Source: Patellaria atrata CBS 101060 (lineage: Eukaryota). Taken from it: DNA of 64,000 nucleotides. The stretch is taken from contig MU006098.1 in assembly GCA_010093705.1 (NCBI GenBank), positions 107,981 through 171,980 of the forward strand, read 5' to 3'. Made by a program: the position numbers and the translations under genes. How positions within the stretch are numbered: position 1 is the first letter of the stretch; each line of letters starts with the position of its first letter. Below the pieces are notes generated by a model that saw only the letters and a list, made by a program, of their open reading frames with translations, was not told the DNA's origin and did not search any database. This document shows, piece by piece, positions 48,841 through 64,000 of the stretch.

Positions 48841-49910
48841 CTACATCAGGAAAGTTGGGGGTAATTCAGGGCCTATCATTATCAGCATGTGCTCATCGGA
48901 AGGTCGTAGTTTTCATTTCTCACTCACCCCATATGTGTAGATTACCGGGACCCGCCTTTGTTCGCGAAGTGGGTGTTGTATCATCAACAAGATCTCCATC
49001 GACATAATGTTCCATCATAAACTTCGAAGGATCCCACCTAATAGAGTCAACAAACGTTCATCAAACTCTCGATTGCTATCACTCACCAGTAATCGAATAT
49101 CTGTGACCCAAGGACATGGCGCCCAATACCCCAAACAAGGTCATACCCCTTTTCTCTCAACCACTGATGTCCAAGACCTTGGATATCGAAATCGTGGACC
49201 TCATAACTGGAATGATGTACGTGAAACTTCGGACCTTCGAAGAAGAAAAAACAGTGGTGGTCTACTTGCTCCTTTCCTCTATCAAGATGCATAAAAGTGG
49301 TTATATCTTCATTCGTGTCGCCATCATACACCAGGTCTGTCGACTTCAAGTTGAAATGCTTCGTATAAAACTCGTACGCCTTCTTGTAGTTCGTCGTACA
49401 GAGGCCGAAGTGACCTAGCTTATGTATCGGTGCCGGGCCATGCTTGAATCGCTGTGTATGGTTGACGGGTCGGTTCTTGTGAGTAGGATAGTTGTAGTCG
49501 AGTTCAGGTAGACTGTCATCGACGCCTTTCTCGCTTTGGCCATAGATCAGATGCCAGGGGCAGTTGTCGATAGGCTCATAGAACGTTACCCGTTTGCCGC
49601 CACCCGGTGCGTCGAGATCCTCAATCTTTGATGCACCCGGTAAGGTTTCTGATGCGCGTTCTAGGTCTTCTAGTGAATCGACCACGAATCCTGCACCGCT
49701 GAATTTACTTTCCGAGCCTTTAAGTGAACAGTACACGAAAGGTTCCTTGCCATAACCCTTATAGTAGGTTCGGTCTTCCTTCTCCTCAGCTACGGTGAAA
49801 CCAAAATCTAGCAGGAACTTGTGGGCCGCTTCATGATCGGCGTGGGTATAATTAATATGGGCGATGCGTTTCAGGGAAATCTTTGGGGGTTCGGTGGCGG
49901 CTGGAGACAT
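48841..49910 (-). CDS. VOC-family (type I) extradiol ring-cleavage dioxygenase, trihydroxytoluene-oxygenase-like, 3 exons
   Basis: Two glyoxalase-like domains. Metal ligands KLGHFG, HVHHSSYEV and MMEHY, plus WGIGRHVLGSQIFDYWWDP. Two GTGAGT introns near the 3' end; stop at 48841-48843. Confidence 0.9.
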
Positions 49911-50895
49911 GATGTCAAGATGTTGAAGCTATTTGGGGACAGCTTCTACTGGAATTTCGAAATCAGATTTAACTACCTATCGACGAACACAGCTTATCAT
50001 ATATAGGTTTATAGCAAATGTTCGAGGCCGTGAGGCGACCAAGACGGCAAATGAAGTCTTTCCTTCCGACGGCAACCAAGAAAGCAAGCACTTCGATCTG
50101 GTCAAGTGAGAGGTGGAGAAGAATTGCATTGACGGGCTAATGTGAGAAGAGCTATCTAACTATGCCGGACTAATGTTGACTCTGATAGGGCCGATCATAG
50201 AACGGCTTTTTCTGCTCCGCATTGTTTGATGTGGGGTTGACGCGATGGAAGTGTTCATCATTCCAGTCGCGGGGTCCTCTTGGTCATTTACTCGATCCAG
50301 GTCCTAATCCTTTACCATCCTCTATACCTAGTTCTCATGTTGTGGCTATCTCCTCTCGGTCACGGCTAGCATTCCTTAGTTACTGCGATAAAGTACCGTG
50401 TGCCTGCACACGTCAGTGTACTATCGAGTTCCAGTGAATAATGGATTGATACCGACAGTTATTCTGGCCCAATTATGCTGAGTCCTTCAAACAATCCTGC
50501 TGTCCTGCATAGTAGAGCTGGATACAAACCCAAAGAGACACCGTACAGTGGTTTTAAGCCGGGAGAACCATGACCGGATGGGATATAACACCACTTTCAC
50601 TTGGTTCTGTTTTCCAGTCATGGGTATTGCACGAGTAATCTTCCGGATATGGTACCGATACCGACGTCTCGCAAGAGTAGAATCAGGACGTACCCTTTTA
50701 CGAACATGTTAACCAGGTGCCTCGTTGGAAGCTCCCCTGTTAGAGAGCCGCGAGGGATCGTCATAGGACCTCTACTTTCATGATGATGAGCATACCTCCG
50801 CAGGATCGAAGCTGAAGAACATATAAAATACTTATTTGCTCGAGGAGTAGTTTTTCTGGGGATTTTTCGTACAATCTACTCGCCCGATACTCACC

Positions 50896-52948
50896 ATGTC
50901 TTCCACTGAACAGTTCACCGATGTCTCCACTATGATCGAAGTTGACCACCTCATCATAGGTGCTGGGCCAGCAGGAGCTTCCCTAGCATGTTTTCTCGCG
51001 TCATATGGTGAATACATGTATAAAAGTCAGATTTAACCATCGTACTAAACTTCTAAAGGACTTAAGGGGTTGGTGATATGTGCCGCACCAGGTACAGCAG
51101 AGACACCAAGAGCTCATATTACCAACATGGCAGCATTAGGTACAGTAAATCGCCTCCTAGAATGCTCTCACAGACGGCTGATGGTTAAATTCTAGAGTGT
51201 CTAAGGGATATCGGACTGGAAGAAGAAGTACTAAAGAATGCAACACCCAACGAATGCATGAGCCATACGAGATGGTGCCGGTCAATGGCCGGAGAAGAAT
51301 ATGCGAGAATCTATTCGTGGGGAAATGATCCCAAGCGGAAAGTACGACTTCCACATCCGCCTTTCAAAAGACTATAGGAACTTACTAGAGGATTCTAGGG
51401 CGACTACGATTCGGCAAGTCACTGCACGCACGTCGATATACCGCAAACGATTCTTGAACCAATCCTCGTCCGTAGGGCAACGCATAGCGGGTTCAAATGT
51501 CGCTTTAATACAGTATTTCTTTCTTTCGAACATGAAAAATCTGGCAAGGTTGTAAGCAAACTCCAAGATAACCTTACCGAAGCCGTCTACTACGTACAGT
51601 CCAAATACTTATATGGTTGCGATGGTGCACGGAGCCGTATTACGCGCCAATTGGACTTACCATTGATGAAAAAACCGGGTCAAGGGGTAGCAATGAACGT
51701 TTTAGCAGATGTCGACCTATCCAGGTATTTGAAAGATCGAGTCGGCAACCTCCACTGGGTCCAGACACCTGACGAGGAATACCCTGATTGGGCTTGGAGC
51801 ATAATCGTTCGGATGGTAAAACCCTGGCATGAGTAGGTTCTCTTTTCAGATGGCGTCACCCCGATGCTGAGTGTTCTAGGTGGATGTTCATCGTTCTGCC
51901 CAAACCCGGTACCGAGTTTGACGACTCGTTGACAGAGGACGACTGGATGCCGCAGCTAAGGAAAGCAGTTGGAGACGATTCTCTTCCAATCAAGATACTA
52001 GGCATCTCCAAATGGACCATCAATGAAATAGTAGCCGAGAGCTATTCCGAGGGGAACATGTGAGGGCTCGTTATTCTCTGTCTGCTGAACCTTGATTGAT
52101 CCCTTATTAGATTCTGCCTCGGAGATGCTGTGCATAGGCATCCTCCTTTCAACGGCCTTGGAAGTAACACATGTGTTCAGGATGCTTACAATCTTGCCTG
52201 GAAAATAGCATATGTCGAGAAAGGACTTGCTGATCCCAAGATACTCTCTTCATATTCTGCTGAGCGACAGCCCGTCGGTGTAGGCGTGGTCACTCGCGCT
52301 AATCAAGGTCTTCGTGACCACTTCCCCGTCTGTGAAGCGCTCGGCATGCTCGACGACGACGTCAAAGTCCGCACGCAGAAGTTCAACGAGCTGGCCGAGA
52401 ACTCGCCTGCCGGCGTGGCTCGCAGAGCAGCGTTGCAAGAGGCGGTTTATGGGACTCGTCGTGAATTCCATGGGGTTGGACAGGAGATGAATCAGCGGTA
52501 TGAGTCGAGCGCTGTATACCTTGCTGACGAAGGCTCGCGACCACCCCTACCAGAGGACCCAATTTTAGAGTATCAGATGACTACATACCCGGGAAGCAGG
52601 CTCCCACATGCGTGGTTGAATACGAGAATTCCCGGAAAACGGTTTTCAACACATGATCTTGCAGGTCATAGCCATTTTTGTCTTTTCACGAGTATCGGAG
52701 GGGACGCATGGCGGGAAGCTGGGATGAAAGTAGGTAAGGAGTTGGGTTTGGAAATCAAGACATTCTCAATTGGGTGGAAGCAGGATTATGAAGATGTCTA
52801 TTCGGATTGGACGAGGAGAAAGGAGGTCGAGGAGGATGGAGTGGTGCTCGTTAGACCAGATCGGTTCGTGGCGTGGAGGTCGAAGAGCATGATTGCTAAT
52901 TGTGAGGAAAAGCTGATGCTGGTTATGAAGAGTATACTTTCGATATAG
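50896..52948 (+). CDS. FAD-dependent phenol hydroxylase (PheA/TfdB-like, FAD_binding_3), multi-exon
   Basis: IIGAGPAGASLA, TPRAHITN, GCDGARS, LGDAVHRHPPFNGLGSNTCVQDAYNLAWK, PGSRLPHAWL and VLVRPDRFVAWR. Confidence 0.93.
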
Positions 52949-53523
52949 GAGGGCGGTAGTGCGTAATATTCACGACCAATGCTGTAATATTATCTGTTAT
53001 GTTATATACAGATATAGACAGAATAGTAGGTATTTTCAGGGGCAACATGTAGTCATACAGCTACAATGGAGGATCGTGCGTACTCGTACTATAATTCAAC
53101 CTCCAGAACTCATGACTTCTCCTATCCAAACGAATGGATTTCAAAGCAGATAGAAACAACACATGGGGTATACTGCATTTTGAAGCATTACGAATGCATA
53201 CCGCTGGACCATACAGTAAGCTTCGAGAAGCCGGTACCTCTCCCAAGGACAGACGGCAAACTCTCAAGTTATTACACCGAGAACATTAGCCCGGCGGGGG
53301 TCACATCATCACATCTCGTATGGAGCTACGATTCGCGCAGCTCAACCACTATAGCCAACGGTTCTCCCGGCAGTTGTTACGACTCTGGACTTACCCCACG
53401 TCAACTGGAGTAATAGCACGAAAGGACCCTGGTATGATATTTTCCAGTGACATACTTCTAGCAGTTATGTGGGACTTTACTTCTACTGCTCGTACGCCCG
53501 AGTTTGCTTAACTTTTGCCCACC

Positions 53524-54518
53524 ATGTCGGAGTTCCAAAGACTCATACGGTTCGAAGATGAGAGCGGGAATGTCATCTACGGTGATTTGAACGAGGAGTT
53601 ACCCGCCGCGCAGATTGTGGGTAAGACGGTATCGGTGCTGGACGGGCATGTGCAGTCCGGGTTCACGAAGACGGATAAGAAGGCTACGGTCAAGAAAGTA
53701 GGCTTTCCATGTCTAAAGATGGGTTGGTTGTAACTAGAACTGATCGATTAGCTCCTTTCTCCTCTCCCGAAAGCGCACGCCATCATCTGCGTCGGTCTTA
53801 ACTACGCCCACCATGCTAAGGAAGCAAATGTACCTCACCCTTTCCTCAAATACTCCCCATCCCCCCCCCCCAAAAAAAATATATCACACATACAGCAACA
53901 CAGCAATACAGAATCTAACACACACCCCAGCTCACCGTTCCCCCCTACCCCGTCATATTCACCAAACCCCCCGACGCCCTCGCCGGTCCCCTCGACGAAG
54001 TCCCAGTCCACCCCTCTGCCCAAGAAATGCTCGACTACGAAGGCGAGCTCACAATCATAATCGGTAAAGACGCAAAAAACGTCTCGGAAGCCGACGCGCT
54101 AAACTACATCCTCGGCTACACCTCCGGCAACGACGTGTCGGCGCGAAACTTCCAGCTCCCCGAGGTCTCCGGGGGACAGTTCTGCTACGCCAAATCGTTC
54201 GACGCCTTCGCGCCCATCGGTCCCGCTATCGTTCATCCGTCGCTCGTCCCGGATCCCCAGGGCTTGAAGCTCTGGACGAAGGTTAATGGGGAGGTTAGGC
54301 AGGAGTCCGGCACTAATGATATGATTTGGAGCGTGGCGAAGATCGTGGAACATGTTACTAGGGGCACGACGGTGAGGAAGGGGACGGTGGTTATGACGGG
54401 GACGCCGTCCGGGGTCGGGTTGTTTATGAGTCCGAAGGGGTTCATCAAGGATGGGGATGAGGTTGAGGTTGGGATTGAGGGGGTCGGGAGTATATCTAAT
54501 AAGATTAGGTTTGAGTGA
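53524..54518 (+). CDS. Fumarylacetoacetate-hydrolase (FAH) family protein, 3 exons
   Basis: Exons 53524-53697, 53752-53829 and 53931-54518. Motifs CVGLNY, PVIFTKP, DYEGEL, GNDVSAR, AKSFDAFAPIGP and MTGTPSGVG. Confidence 0.95.
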
Positions 54519-56506
54519 TTGGATGGGAAGGGATGAAGAGGAAATAGAGAGAATCCTTTGAGATAGTTAGGGCCAATAGAGAAAAATTCTGATCGATGGA
54601 GCTTGTAGATGGCAGTACCCACAGATGTACCAAAACGCCATTGGTTCTGTCCTGACCTATCTTAAACCCATACTTACAAGTCAACTAAACAACCCGCAAC
54701 CCTTTCGAGCTTCCAACCTCCCAAACCATCTCGTCTAGACACCTCAGTAAAACAACCCCCAAATCCCGCGAATATCTTGGCCAGAGAAAAAGATTAGTAC
54801 ATACGGCCGCAGAACGAGAGCAAAAACAGGGAGAATAGGGACATTGCGTTCGTTCCGCTGTACGGTACCCAAGCGTGCTCTGGTAGTTGAGTGTGTGTGA
54901 TTATGGTTGCTGGTGTGTACCTTTTTCTGCTTTTATTTTCTTTTGATCTATTTTTTTTTGGGGGGGAGGGGGGGGGTTGGGAGGTGGGGGAACTTAGGGG
55001 TTGTGGTTGTAGTTGGAGATGTGTGGAATTTGCTGTTATGGTTGGAATTTGGAACCGTCGAGGGTGTGATCACAGATGGGGTGAATTACGGACGAAAGAA
55101 GACTGGTAATCTTTAGATGGTTGTGGGATGGTTCGATTCCTAAAAGAGGGTAGGGAGTGAGGGAATTGGGTTAGGGATTACGTTGAAGGTATGGTGTTGG
55201 ATATTCTGGGAGTTGGCGTGGCCGGATTGGGTGGGGACCTGGTATATCGGAGGTAAAAAGTTGGATTTGAAAGACGGGTCATTGGTATCTCATAACTATT
55301 GCCAGACAGAAATTCCGTTGACAAGTAGATATCGGAAGTAGTATTTATGCCATGACTATAACTCCTTAGCTTGTTGTCATCGACTGTACATCGAGCCTGA
55401 AATATGGTAAAGATCGCTATTGTCACAGTTGGACTCGGATGCGCTGAACTGCTCAGATCTTATTAACATCAACTTCTATCCAGTCAAGCAATCGGAAGTG
55501 GATGGAGGAATTTACCCCACAATCTTGCTACCCTCGAGCGCGCCGCACAGCGATAGCTTAAGAATTGTCGAGTACACATACTGGTGGCTGATCCCTTCGA
55601 TCAAGATGAGGCGTACTAATTCGCAAGTGATATAGTGCGAATCGGAGATAGAAATTGCAACTCGAAGGCGCATAGCTTGCTTTGGGGAAGACACATAGGT
55701 TAAAATACGCCACTAATGATCGATGGAGGATTAAGAGTGCCCAAATTACTTATGCGACCATAACTTAGACTGCTTAATTGGTGTGGTGTATATATAAGTA
55801 GGAGATGCAAACAATAACAGCGATTTACGGTGAACTTATGGACTATTTTTCCAGCCCTTGGAATCGGTTTTCCCATATACGCAAAAGGTATTATGAAATG
55901 CAAGCTGCTTATTGGCGAGCTTAATGATGAAGAATGCTTCCGCCGTCACGGGAGTTCTAACAAGGTATCTTAATAACTGGATGAGCAACTTCAAGTTGAG
56001 TAGAAACTTAGCCAATTTGACTATCGGCACGAAATTCGAACTTGAAATAACTAAGAAATGTTATTATGACGTATAACAAGAAGATAGAAGAATATGCTAA
56101 TGACTGAGGGTATGGAACACACTACAGTTTAGGATACAGCGATTGGGTTGAGTTCTATGACTGTGGTGCTGGATAATATAATACTTTTATGTACTCGCAG
56201 TTTAAGGGTTGAAATTTTCGCATTTCAGCATGGAAGTCGTACGTTTAGTGGTAAACGTAGATGGACTATCCAGTACACTCATGGGGGATACCTCTTAATA
56301 TGGAGCAGGATAGAGAACGATGTTCAAATGAAGGTAGAGCAAAGTAAACTGAGTTGAGCAAGCAAATGAGGACAGTCGAGCAATCTTCATCAGTAAGAAG
56401 GACCAACCAACGAACCAGTCGAGAGTACTCAAGACAAATACTGCCTTACAGTTGAAGGACTGAAGTCCCCTTCTCACTTACGGGTATCTTGTCGTGGAGT
56501 TGAATG

Positions 56507-56679
56507 TGTCACGGGTTAGACCCGATAGGTATAAGTGCCTTGAATGATCCAGCGGCTTAGTCATACTGTACTTTAGTAGAACAGCATATGCTGTCCCAAC
56601 ACTTTCTTTCCTTAAGTTTAAGCTTCATGTACATATAGCAATATACCTTTCAGCTTCCATCTGAGGTTGAGCCATAACA
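56507..56679. mobile_element. Solo LTR (173 bp), probably of a Ty3/gypsy-type retrotransposon
   Basis: TG...CA ends with short inverted termini TGTCACGG / CCATAACA. Flanked by a 5-bp near-duplication, GAATG (56502-56506) and AAATG (56680-56684). No internal retro domains nearby. Confidence 0.7.
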
Positions 56680-57692
56680 AAATGACGTTATACTCCGCAA
56701 ATATATCGGACTATGTGGACAGGGGAATGCTGACAACCGCATTGGTCACATCGAACCGGACCGAATAGTGATAGATCTGACGAAAATACGTAGGTAGTGG
56801 GGTTCAAAAGTTTTGCTCTGACGCTGAGAGCAGAAGTGATATGAAACAATGTATTCACAAGGACATGAGTTTCTCTCTGGATACTCCTAGAGATACCACG
56901 GACTTCGGTTTACTGTTACGCAAGGAGCTCTCGAAATGGAAGAAACAATGACAATGTGATGAATGTCCATTGTACAATTGGATCATTTGGGTGAAGTCGA
57001 CCTGGGGGATGGGTTGGAGAAGGTTGGTTTAAGTTTAGGACGGAACAAGGGCTAAGCGAAAAACGGGGACCATAAGCGCTTATAAAGGGATGGTTTTCCA
57101 CCACCATACACTCCGTATAGTATATATGATGAAGTTGGGGTTGCAAATCTCGGTGCATATCTTATCGCCACTTTTCCCAACTGCCAAAATAGTATCCCTT
57201 GACCGAGCCTGGACATTTTGTAACTGCAACTCCCGCATTAGCTGTGGATCAAGATGCAATGTCGCTAGATATCTTCTTCGATTGGCTGCTCCTTAATATA
57301 AACAATACCTGTCTCTATAAACCACTATTCTGGCTGAAGATCTCAACTAACAGAAGTAATAGTATGCTACTTTAATGATGACCGCAAAGGATAGTAGACT
57401 TATATTCTCCGGCACTGTGTATCGATCTTTAGTCATTCGGCGAAGTGATTTGCGTCACCTTCCCTGATAGGAACCCTACATACACGTTCATTCACGTCGA
57501 TCAGAAGTCTAGAGATGTCTCCTTGCGTACAGTTTACAGTCTTCGTCTTGATGTTACGCTGCAATGCAGGTAAAGTCAGCTTTAGGAATAGATCTATATA
57601 AAAAAAAATGGGTTGCTAAGAGTATTGCTTCAACCCTGTAGTACGAATTATTAAGGGGATACGTCATGAAGCTTTCAGCACTTACGATAGAA

Positions 57693-57700
57693 TATAAAAA
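57693..57700 (+). promoter_or_regulatory. Probable TATA box of the secreted peptidase-like gene
   Basis: TATAAAAA about 60 bp upstream of ATG 57761. Confidence 0.5.
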
Positions 57701-57760: not shown

Positions 57761-58345
57761 ATGAAGGTTAGTGTCTCCATATCCCCTTTAGTTGCGCCGA
57801 GTTAATATCATATAGTTCTCTACCGCCATCTCTATTGCTCTCACTACCTTCTCACTGGCTCAAGCCAGTCCCATTGAGTTGGAGGAGCGCTCTGGTACTC
57901 CACTCACTCAAGCTCAAGCTGCTAGCCGTCTCACCAATGCCGGTATTTCCTCATACTCCAGCGGAGGCTGCACTACCCGCAGCGTCAAGACCTGCACATC
58001 CTACGAGGGCGTCCTTTCAGGGACTGTTGATGGAGCCATCACGCTTAAAGGTGCATGCGGATGCAGCCTTGTGATCACTGGTGGTACCGAGGTTGGCCAC
58101 GCCGATGGCCCGTATAGTCATTATAAAGGATATAAGTTTGACTTCCGAAAAAACACTGCGTTGGATTCGTATGTGAAGAATTCGTTTACGAGGATTGCGA
58201 ATCGCGGCGATGGGTATCCTCAATGGCAATCAGCAGCAGGCAATATATATTGTGTAAGTGAAATACCTAATCTAGAGTGTCACTATTCACGGCTGATATA
58301 TGAAACTAGGATGAGGGTAATCATTGGGATGTTACTTACTATTAG
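57761..58345 (+). CDS. Small secreted protein (159 aa) with a LAS/peptidase-M15 (Hedgehog/DD-peptidase)-like Zn-ligand signature, 3 exons
   Basis: Exons 57761-57766, 57816-58253 and 58310-58345. Product MKFSTAISIALTTFSLAQASPIELEER-SG...ITGGTEVGH..YSHYKGYKFDF...YCDEGNHWDVTYY. Confidence 0.85.
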
Positions 58346-58865
58346 AACTATATAGAGAATAAATAGTCGAGTACTGTATTTGGATAAGGGCGTAGGAAGA
58401 GAATGGACCAGCCATATACACCTGTATAATAGCACCCTTTCTTTAATCAATATACAACGATACCGTACAGTGACCTGGTGTAGTACAGAGAAAACGTATA
58501 ACTCCACAAATTCTACTCCAACCTAGCAAAATACGAATGATGGCGTGATATTCAAGTATTCACACTATAGGAATTAGGGACCAGAACGAACCACTGACAT
58601 ACCCAAGAGGGCATTGTAATTTATTTATATGCTACATGAATGCCGCACCGCAATCCTGAGTCTGGTATTAAGTAGATATATCGACGTAAACTTACATGTG
58701 GTCGCATAAGGACTTCAGCCACCATTCTCCGCATAGAGTAGATTATGTAGGTTGGATGAAGCACCTGTAGCCTCGGGTAGTTACGTGGCTGCACGTAGTG
58801 CGTCCAGTCTAATGCTGATCGATTGCTCAATACCTTCAACATAAAGGAGACCCTAGGACGTGCAC

Positions 58866-60116
58866 TTAAGTAAGCGCATCGTGGAATGAGTAGATGCCGT
58901 TGGGGCCATCATTCCATATTATTTCAAGGTACTTTGTGTACTCTTCGCATTGTGCAGCATCTCCTTGGATTACTTCGCTTGAAGGGAGCACAATATATCC
59001 AGGGGGTACATATTTCGCTGCAGATATCCTCTGTTTTCCCCAAATTAGCCAAAATAGCAGCTCACGATTCGGAGGATTTGTGTAAGTATCCATCTCCCCT
59101 CCATGGTGTGGGATCAGTAAAACGCAGTATCACTTAGTGAAGCTAATGCGAAGTGCTCGGCGGCCCTCGGCACGCACCGTGTTCCAGAACTGTCGAGTGA
59201 AAATGTTTTCGATATACGATGGGGGTATTGTCCAGATTACCGTTAATTTCAGGGAATCCCTACGGCGCTGCTGTTGAAAAAGCAGGGCCAGATCCAAGGG
59301 GTTCTTCTCGTCAGGTCCAGGGAAGATCTCTATGAGATCCGACGGCCATGGCTGTAGAGACACAGTGAATATCCCAGTCATTGACCAGAATTTTATCAGT
59401 CATTTTCCAATACCAATCCCCTTTCAAGAACCCCACACCTGCGCATCCAGAGTAGAATTGTTGCGACTCATAACCTGCCTCTCCGAATCCACTCTCCTCG
59501 AAATAACTCTCGTGACTGCCATACACTCGTGACTCACATAGAAAGCTTATAGCATGTGCGAGCTCATGGACAAGAGCCTCAGCTGCTTGAAAGGGATATT
59601 CAACCTCGGTAGGCTCTCCCTTTTCATTGATATGTAATTTCCCGTAGATCCTCGACCCATAGAATATAGTGGAGAGGTAACCCGGAAAGTGCGTAAGACG
59701 AGGAGGCAACAGAGACCTCGAGGGGCCACACTCGGCGGCTTTATTAGAGCTGGGGTCGCATAGGTTCAATGTCATGTAGTCAGCTAGAACATTGAAGACT
59801 TCCATGGTATCTCTCATATCCTGATGAGTAAGGGTTGAATCTTTGCGGTGGTAGCACTGAGTCTTTACAACGTTTTGTCTCTTATCATCTCAGCGCACAA
59901 TCCATTCCCTTCTCCCAAACATCATTGCGTGCTAAAATGACAAGAAACATGATTCTGCAAGTAGTAGTCATGCCAGGCGTAGAGAGGGTTTCCACCTCTG
60001 GCATTCGACGTTCGGAAAGTTCTTCTCAGCGAATATAGAAAGAATAGGATTATCGAGATCGTACTTTGTCGATCAGCACGAACATTTGCTCCAGTACTGG
60101 ATGATGCCGTACTCAT
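58866..60116 (-). pseudogene. Fragmented gene with a zincin-like HExxH motif
   Basis: Consecutive minus-strand ORF pieces in differing frames (60116-59922, 59817-59311, 59381-59130, 59093-58866). The core is EALVHELAHAI..ESYFEESGFGEAGY. I could not find clean splice sites to join them. Confidence 0.4.
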
Positions 60117-61452
60117 CGTAATAAAGAGAATTACTCAAGAGAACTGTAGCGTGATAGCTGTTGATAGTTAAAGTAATGGAGATAATAGAGCAAAATCTTT
60201 TAGTCTCGAAAAGACGGGGAGATGAGAGGTATGTTTATAAGAATTTCTCGAGATGCATAGTGTTACAACAAACCGATATCCACCAAATATTATGTGAATA
60301 CAATAAATCCCTGAGACAAGGGTAAATAGGATAGTGAATCAATATCTAGACTTGTGTCTGAAAGAGGGGGATTCATAATTCACGAACCCATCTTTTTCTT
60401 TGAATGATTATTCGATCATACACCGTAGAACTCCCGGCTACTTACTTCCCCTACTTTTGACTTCACTGACTCCGAGGTCAAGAGCAGATCTATAACCCGC
60501 ATCTGTGATTCAACTACCATTCCAGGCAATGCGCCTAATATGTCCATAGACATTCGAGAAACTTCCGGTTACACGTAATTTACTTTCCGGGACATATATG
60601 CCGGGTGCTCGTCCCATTAATAAGTTCATATACGAGGGAGGTCGTTGTGGATAACTTATTACCGTTTCCTGTAATATATTCACTGGATTCATAAACGCTC
60701 AGCAAATTCTCGACATAGCTTGACTGCTCGAGTAATGATTTTGCTTAACATATTTAATTAAATAATTTGTAATCCACCAAAGAATTAGCTTGATCAACGA
60801 AGAGGTTATATTGATGTAATGGCTACTCCTCAACCAGTTTTAGTCGAATTACCTTTGCACATCGTGACAGTTAATGGCTGTTGGCATTTCGGTTGCTGGA
60901 AAGACGTAAGGTGGTCGTAAGGAGAAATGAGAAGGATTGCGACCGGGCGAAACCACTTTATAGAGTTGAGAAAATCATAGCACGTATATCTAAAGGCCCG
61001 TCTAACATGAAGAATGTCGTGTGGATGGCTGAACGTTGATTCAGAATATATCTTGTGCTGACAAAGCGGCTTCATTTGGTCGGGGACGGAAGCTAATTCA
61101 CCCCGCCTTTATACAGTAGTTCTCGACCTGCATAAGCGGATTCCATCTCTACCTTACACTTGTACAGTTAGGCTTCACAAACTTATTCACACACGATATG
61201 TGCGCCATCCAAGTTTGATTCCCTGGTACAGAAAGTTTGACCGCCATGCTTCTCTCTCCCATGAGAGATCTCGAACTTCACCTCAACGCATTCGCATATC
61301 GGTAAAGAGAAGATATATCTGTAAATCCCTATGTTATTCGCCTGTGCGACCCTCAACTATCAGGCAAGTCATTTTTCAGGCGAGGTTGAATCTACAAATT
61401 ATTATCTGTGATCCATACCAACGATCTTTGTTAAAGTACAATATTGCTACGT

Positions 61453-64000
61453 ATGGCGGAGGGTACAGGAAGCGGCGAGAACTCGCCCGCCCCTCGGCCA
61501 TTACTGGCGTGTTACACGTGTAAGAGGTATTGACAATAGGTCATTCTATAGCCAAGGGGACGACGCTAAGAAGAGGTTAGGAGAAAGATCAAGTGGTCCG
61601 TTCATAAAATATTGCGAACTAGTCTGCGCTGTATTGAGACTGAAGCTCGATAGTGATCATGGTCGCCCAGCTTGCTCGCTTTGTGTGAAGACAGAGCAAG
61701 TTTGTGAATATCCTCTGACGTCGGCAAAACCAGGTCCCAAAATTGGTTAGTGTCCAGTGTGTAGATTCCGCTTTACTTGGAATGATATTAAACATGATAC
61801 TATTGTTCATCAGGTGCTCCTCAGAAACGGAAACAACGGCGATTACTGGATGGCTCTGCAAAGCCGACGGATCATACCCAAAGTCCTCCTGAATATCCCC
61901 TTAAGAAACCTCCGTTATCTTCGATTGGTAGTGTGGTTCCACAACAAGATCAGACTGTTCAACCCCTAGCTCAGATCTATGCCTCAGGCACCTCTTCCAC
62001 AACCGGAGTACCTGAGATAAATAGGTCCCCACTCAAGAATGTGACTGTTTCTTCATTTGAGAGAGCGATATCTGATGAGCGTGTACTGTCTCAAATAATG
62101 CACCCCTCTCATGATCCTGTTGAGGAGCATGAGAAGGACTCACTCGATAGCTCCTCTACGGAAAGGATGGACAGCGCTGACCCGGGTACCGTAGTAACAG
62201 GAATGCTTATTGAAGCTTGTAGAACTTTTAGAATGAATCTAGGGAAAGTCCAACTTATGTGAGTAAATTCTCATATGAGATACTGCTATTTTTTTGATCT
62301 AGTCGCGCTGGATTATCGCTAAGAGGGGATCCTTTCATTAATATGGGCCTAGCCACGAATGAAGAAATGCCATCGTTGATATTGTGGTTTTACTACTCAC
62401 TGGAGATATTCTGCTGACTGGCTTGCGCCTGCTAGGATCGATAGATATTTCGAGAATATGACATCCTTCTCTTTGTTTCGTCGACCAGCTTTCGACACAA
62501 AACTCCAAGGGATCAAAACCCAACGTCATGCAGAGGCGCTCCTAGCTGCAATGTTTTCGTTCTCCGCACGTTTCTGTAGTGATGCTGAACTCAGACGGAC
62601 AGGTGATGAGACAATGCCAGCTACCGAATACTTTCACAAGCTTGCGAAGATAATGCTAGACAGTTGTCTGGATAGTTTCGTAGAAGATACACCCCCTTTA
62701 TGTCTGCTACAAGCTTTAATTCTCTTAACCTTCCAACAGTTGATCGACGGAGTGCGAGGGCGAGCTTGGAGATCTCTCGGGACTTGTGTCCGGATTGCCC
62801 ATGAGCATAGCCTACATCTCATTGATCTGGAACGGAGTAAGAAATCTGGTGTTGATCTTGACGTATCGCAATGGATCTTGGATGAAGAGCGGAGAAGAGC
62901 TTGGTGGGTCATCTGGGAATTTGACGTCTTCGCTAGTACAGTCAGGAAACTACCTACAGCTATCGACTGGGCTCAGAATAATACCTGGCTTCCGGTGGAT
63001 GATGAGGCCTGGTATGCCGGAATCTACCGACCAAGTTGCGTTTTGGCAATAGATCCAGCCATCCGATGGAAACAACTAGAGAGCAGTGGAAATCAGAGCG
63101 CTAAAGCGTGGTTTATCGTGGTAAATTCACTCATGCGAAGCGCCCAACTCGTATCATATCCGCAGTTCTTTTCGCATTCCAGTCGGATAATGTTAGACTT
63201 GGAGAGTCAAAGACCATCCGCTGAAGGGATTACTCTATTACCAGAACTCACAGATACCGCTCAAATGGACCTGGATATACTGGCCAACTCACTTTGCTGC
63301 GTCATCATTGCTCTACCACCTGGTTTAGCTTTCAGGGGCGAAGCACTCAACTTCGCTTACTATCAAACCGCTCCAGTTCTTCCGAACTCTTATCAACAAG
63401 CATTTGACACGTACAGTTTGCACATAATGATTCAACTTACGCGCTTTATGATATACCACAACCACGTATCACGCCTCTCATGTAACAACACCTCGGTCTC
63501 TACTCCCGGTTCCTCACAATCACTCGGAACATCGCCCACCATCAATTCGGCGCCACCAAAAACTATCTCACCTTCCGCGCGTGCAGCATGGAATCACTAT
63601 CTTACGGCAGCATCTGAGATTGTATCTCTCCTACGATCATCTCCCCCCTCGCACGTACAACACGTAAATCCCTTTCTCGGAAGCACCATCTGGCTTACCG
63701 CCGCCACCCAGGTCGTATACCGATTTTTCGACCCCCCTGCGCATCAACGCCGAGCAATAGACTCAAATCTGGACCTTCTACGCCTGACCTTCAACCGCTA
63801 CGTAGCCTTCTGGAACATTTCAAAGGCGTTACAGGAGAACTTAGAAGGTGTGGAAAGGAAGCTAGAGCGATTGCGGCGTCACGAGCAGAAAGTCCAGACG
63901 GAGCAGAAGAAGGATGAGCAGGTGCCCTTGGGAATTGATGGAATGATGTATGGAACTGGTACGACTAATTGGACTCCGGGCATGGCTTGGAATCTTAATT
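61453..64000 (+). CDS. Zn(II)2Cys6 transcription factor with a fungal-specific TF domain; runs off the window end
   Basis: ATG 61453. The zinc cluster ACYTCKR-RKIKC-DHGRPACSLCVKTEQVCEYP is assembled across two introns. The middle-homology region reads LLQALILL..AWRSLGTCVRIAHEHSLHLID..EERRRAWWVIWEFDVFAS. The last exon, from 62436, is open to 64000. Confidence 0.92.

Follow-up and report, generated by a model that had tools for sequence, protein, structure and literature searches.

The window analyzed here, a 64,000-nucleotide (nt) stretch of contig MU006098.1 of the fungus Patellaria atrata CBS 101060, contains a three-exon gene for a small secreted protein (Table 1), present in one copy in the genome. 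On the whole of the evidence, the gene probably encodes a metallopeptidase of the LAS fold that is of bacterial origin and acts on peptidoglycan. The three exons, joined in phase 0, gave a 159-residue protein with cysteines at positions 54, 62, 83, 85, and 148, as the original prediction had claimed. An identical 159-residue protein (P0002; hypothetical protein, Patellaria atrata CBS 101060) was retrieved from a public collection in a search with exon 2; this record probably comes from the same genome and is an independent gene call, not independent DNA. The sequence features named in the original prediction were also present. The N-terminus was hydrophobic (mean Kyte-Doolittle value of 1.5 for residues 3–16), and a signal peptide was predicted from this hydropathy; LEER occupied residues 24–27; and H104-x6-D111 and the terminal H153-W-D155 were confirmed in the spliced protein. 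An Arg preceded the mature S/T-G start in 57 of 67 pattern-matched near homologues.

Table 1 Features of the gene and its upstream region (positions are those of the window)
Feature	Position	Strand	Remark
Exon 1 (Met-Lys)	57761..57766	+	Matches P0002; two-codon first exon also in 7/12 homologous loci examined
Intron 1, 49 nt, phase 0, GTTAGT..TAG	57767..57815	+	Position common to homologues
Exon 2, residues 3–148: remainder of predicted signal peptide (to ~19), pro-piece with terminal LEER (24–27), most of the predicted LAS-fold domain	57816..58253	+	
Intron 2, 56 nt, phase 0 after Cys148, GTAAGT..TAG	58254..58309	+	Identical site in 13/80 metagenome loci
Exon 3, residues 149–159 and stop: E150-G-N-H153-W-D155, last beta-strand, predicted third ligand	58310..58345	+	
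E94-x2-H97-x6-H104-x4-K109-x-D111: active-site loop and first two predicted metal ligands	58089..58142	+	Conservation in homologues
TATAAA-like candidate word, 68 nt 5′ of the ATG	57693..57699	+	Second such word at 57595
Solo long terminal repeat (LTR), 173 bp, TG..CA, flanks GAATG/AAATG	56507..56679		Strand not assigned; ends 1081 nt before the ATG

The gene is a genuine part of the fungal genome. Contamination was ruled out by the two spliceosomal introns, by a GC content at third codon positions within the range of the neighbors (0.49 in exon 2; 0.39–0.73 across 10 neighboring open reading frames, ORFs), by the fungal nature of the neighboring genes, and by orthologues with the same introns. 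Because 367 proteins of similar length, among 402 candidates, matched at E ≤ 0.001, the gene is not a product of chance. The DNA from 58400 to 64000 was unique in the genome, and no synteny with the flanks of the gene was found among 16 short fungal-type loci. Both upstream elements of the original prediction, the TATA word and the nearby LTR, were found. With 40 of 95 candidates scored, the LTR matched at least 43 other places in the genome; it is real, but no evidence ties it to the gene.

The introns were shared among homologues. The motif before the last exon was seen in 76 of 80 metagenome loci, of which 62 were uninterrupted, 13 had a GT..AG intron exactly at the Cys148 site, and 1 was cut off. 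The best named matches of the 13 intron-bearing loci were ascomycetes for some and Agaricales for others. An intron after codon 2 was found in 7 of the 12 loci examined, two of them agaric-like, and both introns were common to ascomycete-like and agaric-like copies. Two contigs (L164 and L167) had the same gene without and with both introns, respectively, at 472 of 477 identical coding bases, and L164 is probably a spliced transcript. Unspliced read-through at the Cys148 site ended 32 of 120 near proteins, including named records from Eutypa, Marasmius, Sphagnurus, and Rhizoctonia. Because both introns are shared and the named fungi form one group in the trees described below, the gene with its introns either predates this fungus or has since moved between fungi.

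Predicted fold and active site

According to structure prediction, the protein has the LAS superfamily (Hedgehog/DD-peptidase) fold and belongs to a family without a curated model. The core of the predicted model, an antiparallel sheet with helices, superposed on Sonic hedgehog (Shh), VanX, and 1lbu, which bore out the fold assignment of the original prediction. Hedgehog was the best structural match, with 15–19% identity, and D111 lay on a predicted strand (109–113). Foldseek gave no match at E ≤ 0.001 against the PDB; against BFVD it returned one uncharacterized phage protein at 5e-4, followed by weaker rows that were GH19-fused, labeled "Sonic hedgehog," M15, or tape-measure. Alignment to a VanY set with hhalign was not significant.

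The putative active-site residues were strongly conserved. E94, H97, H104, and D111 were present in 120 of 120 near homologues, and K109 was present in 119 of 120. H104-x6-D111 fits the H-x(3-6)-D spacing of the first two metal ligands in LAS enzymes, whose third ligand is a His, in H-x-H or, as in LdcB, in E-x-x-H. Among 100 diverse members, the counts were 100 for E94, 100 for H97, 99 for H104, 97 for K109, 96 for D111, 94 for E150, 93 for H153, and 95 for D155. Three fungal-looking paralogues (P0174, P0236, and P0186) had Asn for D111 and altered C-terminal residues and are possibly inactive.

The original prediction had read the terminal H-W-D as the H-x-H position of LAS enzymes with Asp for the last His, and two predicted models agreed with it. 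The end of the first model, Y159, fell four residues past the third zinc His (1lbu 201 vs. H197, mouse Shh 187 vs. H183, and VldE 379 vs. H375), whereas the second model, whose last residue directly follows the Asp, ended one residue past the ligand (human Shh 183, VldE 376, and 1lbu 198). We take H197 to be the third zinc ligand of 1lbu. The numbers for mouse Shh H183 and VldE H375 are those of PMC6027127 and PMC11667670. The end positions of both models place D155 at the third-ligand position and H153 at the first His of H-x-H, in a register that presumes a gap-free last strand and from models that share many alignment rows and so are not fully independent. The canonical H/D/H site is probably not present, Asp155 standing in the place of the third ligand.

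The transition-state Arg of M15A enzymes and VldE (R294 in VldE, PMC11667670; located after G-G-F in 1lbu) was absent from the loop before the first His, where E94 and H97 were invariant in the 120 near and 100 diverse members. Shh has a stacked H135/H181 pair and E177 (PMC8052667), to which H97/H153 and E150 correspond in spacing and fold. The correspondence was drawn from spacing and fold rather than from aligned residues, since a search of 201 Actinomycetota, whose control was also silent, turned up no bacterial Hedgehog. The active site is probably Hedgehog-like, with a His/Asp/Asp metal site.

Compared with the Hedgehog N-terminal domain and BacHh (PMC6027127, PMC8052667), the fungal protein shares the predicted fold at the low identity given above. 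It differs in the predicted Asp for His as third ligand, in having no HH_signal match and no Hint domain, and in being stand-alone and secreted. The MEROPS M15 and clan MD enzymes (1lbu, a Streptomyces DD-peptidase; VldE, which carries an MT3 tape-measure motif; MepA; LdcB; VanX/VanY; Ply500; and the T5 endolysin) appear to be kin at the level of the fold. Unlike them, the fungal family has no Pfam M15 match and no catalytic Arg, has a predicted Asp as third ligand, and has a conserved Cys54/Cys62 pair and a GGTE motif.

Family distribution and origin

The 120 matches listed comprised 58 named fungi (query included), 9 named Actinomycetota, and 53 proteins without a species name. The named fungi were Dothideomycetes, Sordariomycetes, Agaricomycetes, and Mortierella, and a second search added Cosmosporella, Clonostachys, Botryobasidium, and Actinomortierella. 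At E ≤ 0.001, a profile search returned 2,016 clusters, and 150 of them were examined. In GTDB, with search patterns biased towards the query alignment, at least 576 of 600 pattern hits were confirmed, and the best 80 were from 79 Actinomycetota and 1 Deinococcus. The family gene was carried by 5 of 300 sampled Actinomycetota, besides the center genome; four genomes in the sample were flagged as unpublished and gave no match. Across the mature domain, identity was 83% to Microdochium, 70% to Psychromicrobium and Amycolatopsis, and 62–70% to the 9 near named actinobacterial relatives. Both the secreted actinobacterial relatives and the patchy fungal and actinobacterial spread had been anticipated by the original prediction. 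Among viruses, a tblastn search of 50,697 phage records gave no close relative and a first pattern scan confirmed 0 of 46 hits; a looser scan found two phage carriers (L162 and L163).

Sequence searches of Pfam, NCBIfam, PHROGs, and the PDB gave nothing relevant. The Pfam Peptidase_M15 families, VanY, and HH_signal were not among the matches listed at E ≤ 1 for the query and 116 members, nor did they match the three members named "Peptidase M15(-like)" in UniRef. Many other members, including many fungal ones, have the UniRef label "peptidoglycan-binding domain 1 protein," found in Agaricomycetes. The fungal members had no PG_binding_1 domain in a Pfam scan, and the label looks to have been taken over from fused bacterial matches. 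Three Coprinopsis cinerea genes with this label, CC1G_07956, CC1G_13099, and CC1G_05638, are among the tissue-specific defense genes of PMC4082614 and may be members, and a small secreted Tulasnella protein in PMC13413494 has the same label. No description of the family was found in the full-text literature searched, outside of which most subscription papers lie and in whose supplements members may be listed. In particular, word searches of the main texts of PMC13127573, PMC10796067, PMC6461984, PMC4794925, PMC13413494, PMC11526942, and a lichen preprint (10.64898/2026.09.03.749242) gave no M15 or Hedgehog-fold fungal protein; their supplements may name members otherwise.

The rows of the trees were either hand-picked or obtained by dereplication of 344 domains; 21 partial matches were dropped. 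In a tree of 106 rows (132 columns), 36 named fungi stood on one side and 25 named bacteria on the other (93/90; 100% of 200 bootstrap trees); the bootstrap had yet to settle completely, and the bacterial side took in two fungal-looking rows. A 50-row mixture-model tree (98/85) joined the fungi beside short-branched stand-alone actinobacterial proteins. Its root was unstable because long rows without a species name fell on the fungal side. The main actinobacterial clade was separate from the fungi in a FastTree run, and a quick tree placed the fungi and the main actinobacterial group on one side (SH-aLRT, the Shimodaira-Hasegawa-like approximate likelihood ratio test, 89). Within the fungi, Mortierellales grouped with Agaricales in the 106-row tree (99/98), at odds with taxonomy. 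In approximately unbiased (AU) tests, both chosen after the trees were seen, Basidiomycota as a single clade were rejected (p-AU 0.015) and Dikarya were not (p-AU 0.305).

It is most likely that the gene came from bacteria in one old event, and an actinobacterial donor is plausible. One old entry, intron gain, and later loss, paralogy, or fungus-to-fungus transfer fits the trees best. As regards the horizontal transfer of the original prediction, a bacterial source is likely, but the entry was not into this lineage, since both introns are shared across fungi. Four secreted proteins with long pro-regions (P0125, P0166, P0195, and P0221, one with an SH3_3 domain) formed their own clade apart from the fungi (100/90). 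They give the impression of being eukaryotic and protist-like, and a second uptake by eukaryotes is possible. A partial family domain was also found at the end of a protein recorded for the nematode Acrobeloides nanus (P0129), which may be a gene fusion artefact or contamination.

Elsewhere in the window, an open frame of 192 residues on the minus strand (59311–59889) contained an H-E-x-x-H word, had no Pfam match, and lay in DNA unique in the genome; it may belong, as an exon, to an orphan metalloprotease-like gene. Adjoining glyoxalase/dioxygenase, FAD-dependent aromatic hydroxylase, and FAA hydrolase ORFs (49083–54518) resembled an aromatic-catabolism cluster. Inverted arms of 32 nt (53855–53886 and 54944–54975; 84% complementary, mostly homopolymer runs) surrounded the FAA hydrolase ORF and may be due to chance. 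A DDE_1 transposase ORF was found at 1589–2830 on the plus strand.

Substrate, mechanism, and alternative explanations

Partner domains were sought in 95 longer relatives (88 taken by length from 150 listed and 7 of 19 from another listing). PG_binding_1 was found in 5 and T4SS_pilin in 9 (3 below the cut-off); SH3_3, WXG100, eCIS_core, glucosaminidase, peptidase C39, PAN_4, and B_lectin each occurred once, and 74 relatives had no Pfam match. In tape-measure-like proteins, a partial family domain followed a glucosaminidase (P0133) or a phage tail lysozyme (L163). The combination of a glycosidase with a peptidase is typical of virion wall hydrolases. The two phage carriers encode a large protein of 1335 residues with the family domain and a DnaJ match (L162:1849-5856) and a tape-measure-like protein with the family domain and the tail lysozyme (L163:739-3525). 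The T4SS pilin-domain fusions were P0202, P0218, P0230, P0242, P0258, P0265, P0277, P0130, and P0131, and the order of pilin before family domain is an arrangement known from Patescibacteria. Conserved actinobacterial neighbors were regulators, transporters, and metabolic genes and gave no clue to the substrate; the two most widespread neighbor clusters were dismissed as shadow frames over the family gene itself. Judged by the domain fusions, peptidoglycan would be the likeliest substrate, with moderate confidence.

In the mechanism that we propose, removal of the signal peptide (approximately residues 1–19) and of a short pro-piece ending at Arg27 would leave a 14-kDa domain. A metal, presumably zinc, would be held by H104, D111, and D155, the last an Asp where LAS enzymes have His. 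E150 would activate water, H97 and H153 would stabilize the transition state, as has been said of H135/H181 in Shh, and K109 may bind a carboxylate of the substrate. Most likely the enzyme would act on bacterial peptidoglycan, at its peptide stem or its cross-link, and the fungus may use the enzyme against bacteria or for feeding on bacterial remains. A single entry into fungi, from bacteria probably near Actinomycetota, would have been followed by the gain of two introns and then by patchy retention, losses, and probably fungus-to-fungus transfers. More tentatively, an LAS branch with the Hedgehog-type set (H97/H153/E150) on a His/Asp/Asp site may be an active peptidoglycan peptidase of phages, pilin- and WXG100-bearing bacteria, and Actinomycetota that fungi, and other eukaryotes independently of them, acquired for antibacterial use.

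As regards mechanism, a shift of two residues at the C-terminus would restore H/D/H. In this VanX/VanY-like register, zinc would sit on H104, D111, and H153, E150 would be the base, and D155 would pair with K109, which would give an ordinary M15-type enzyme. K109 and D155 are both conserved, hhalign to the VanY set paired E-x-x-H-W with E-P-W-H (not significantly), and H/D/H is the rule in LAS enzymes (PMC4087270). We nonetheless consider this register unlikely, if a real possibility: two high-confidence models, not fully independent, place D155 on the ligand in LAS chains with checkable ligand numbers, and the one H-x-H among 392 members, in the pilin-fused P0130 (hhalign 99.5% to the family), is an H-F-H that replaces H-W-D. 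The same fold and origin could also belong to a protein that is not an enzyme but a peptidoglycan- or metal-binding pseudo-peptidase comparable to Drosophila Hedgehog, with a role in binding or masking muropeptides or in scavenging zinc. The Asp as third ligand, the missing catalytic Arg, Hedgehog as best match, and the fungal-looking paralogues with lost ligands (P0174 and P0236) point in this direction. Such a role is improbable when eight polar cleft residues are kept at 93–100% in 100 diverse members and the family domain adjoins wall-binding and lytic domains, the place expected for a catalytic domain.

An active metallopeptidase with another substrate in fungi, such as D-amino-acid-containing bacterial lipopeptides or a plant or fungal wall protein, is distinctly improbable. 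Most recognizable partner domains indicate the bacterial envelope, and, apart from Hedgehog, the matches with solved structures are peptidoglycan peptidases; set against this, neither the fungal forms nor the nearest actinobacterial ones, which are stand-alone proteins, carry a wall-binding module, the 74 of 95 longer relatives mentioned above give no Pfam clue, and many carriers are, by their names, plant-associated. There is also a low probability that bacteria were not the source and that an old eukaryotic gene either disappeared from most fungi or was transferred by fungi to Actinomycetota. Fungal copies were not nested in a supported actinobacterial clade, the root was not settled, carriers were as few as 5 of 300 sampled Actinomycetota, and eukaryote-looking members and the nematode record exist. 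Far more architectures occur outside fungi, however (pilin, WXG100, PG-binding, phage), the fungal genes have introns and the bacterial copies have none, and 70% identity between fungus and bacterium appears too high for descent from a universal ancestor. A secreted peptidoglycan peptidase of bacterial origin is the reading that we prefer.

Transfer of wall hydrolases from bacteria to eukaryotes is already known; what would be new is the LAS enzyme class and its site in fungi. The NlpC/P60 enzymes of Trichomonas are reportedly cell-wall hydrolases that passed from bacteria to a eukaryote. GH25 muramidases were also transferred from bacteria to eukaryotes (PMC4241558), and the GH24 lysozymes of Coprinopsis, possibly of like origin, are antibacterial (PMC6461984). 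The fungal protein would follow the logic proposed for these enzymes, in which a eukaryote retains and secretes a wall hydrolase of bacterial type as a defense against bacteria. These three are glycosidases or cysteine peptidases with demonstrated activity, whereas the fungal protein is a predicted LAS metallopeptidase. Among antibacterial wall enzymes of fungi, those encountered in print were lysozymes (GH24 and GH25). If the proposed reading is true, the protein would be an LAS-type antibacterial enzyme of fungi, found in no paper searched, and would add an enzyme class to fungal-bacterial competition. Carriers include mushrooms, Rhizoctonia, Xylariales, Cercospora, and Mortierellales, in which the present label is misleading or empty. 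The protein would also provide a small system, convenient for study, in which to examine the disputed chemistry of Hedgehog as a peptidase, and a Hedgehog-like active site with a different third ligand would offer a natural comparison on whether the Hedgehog fold cuts anything.
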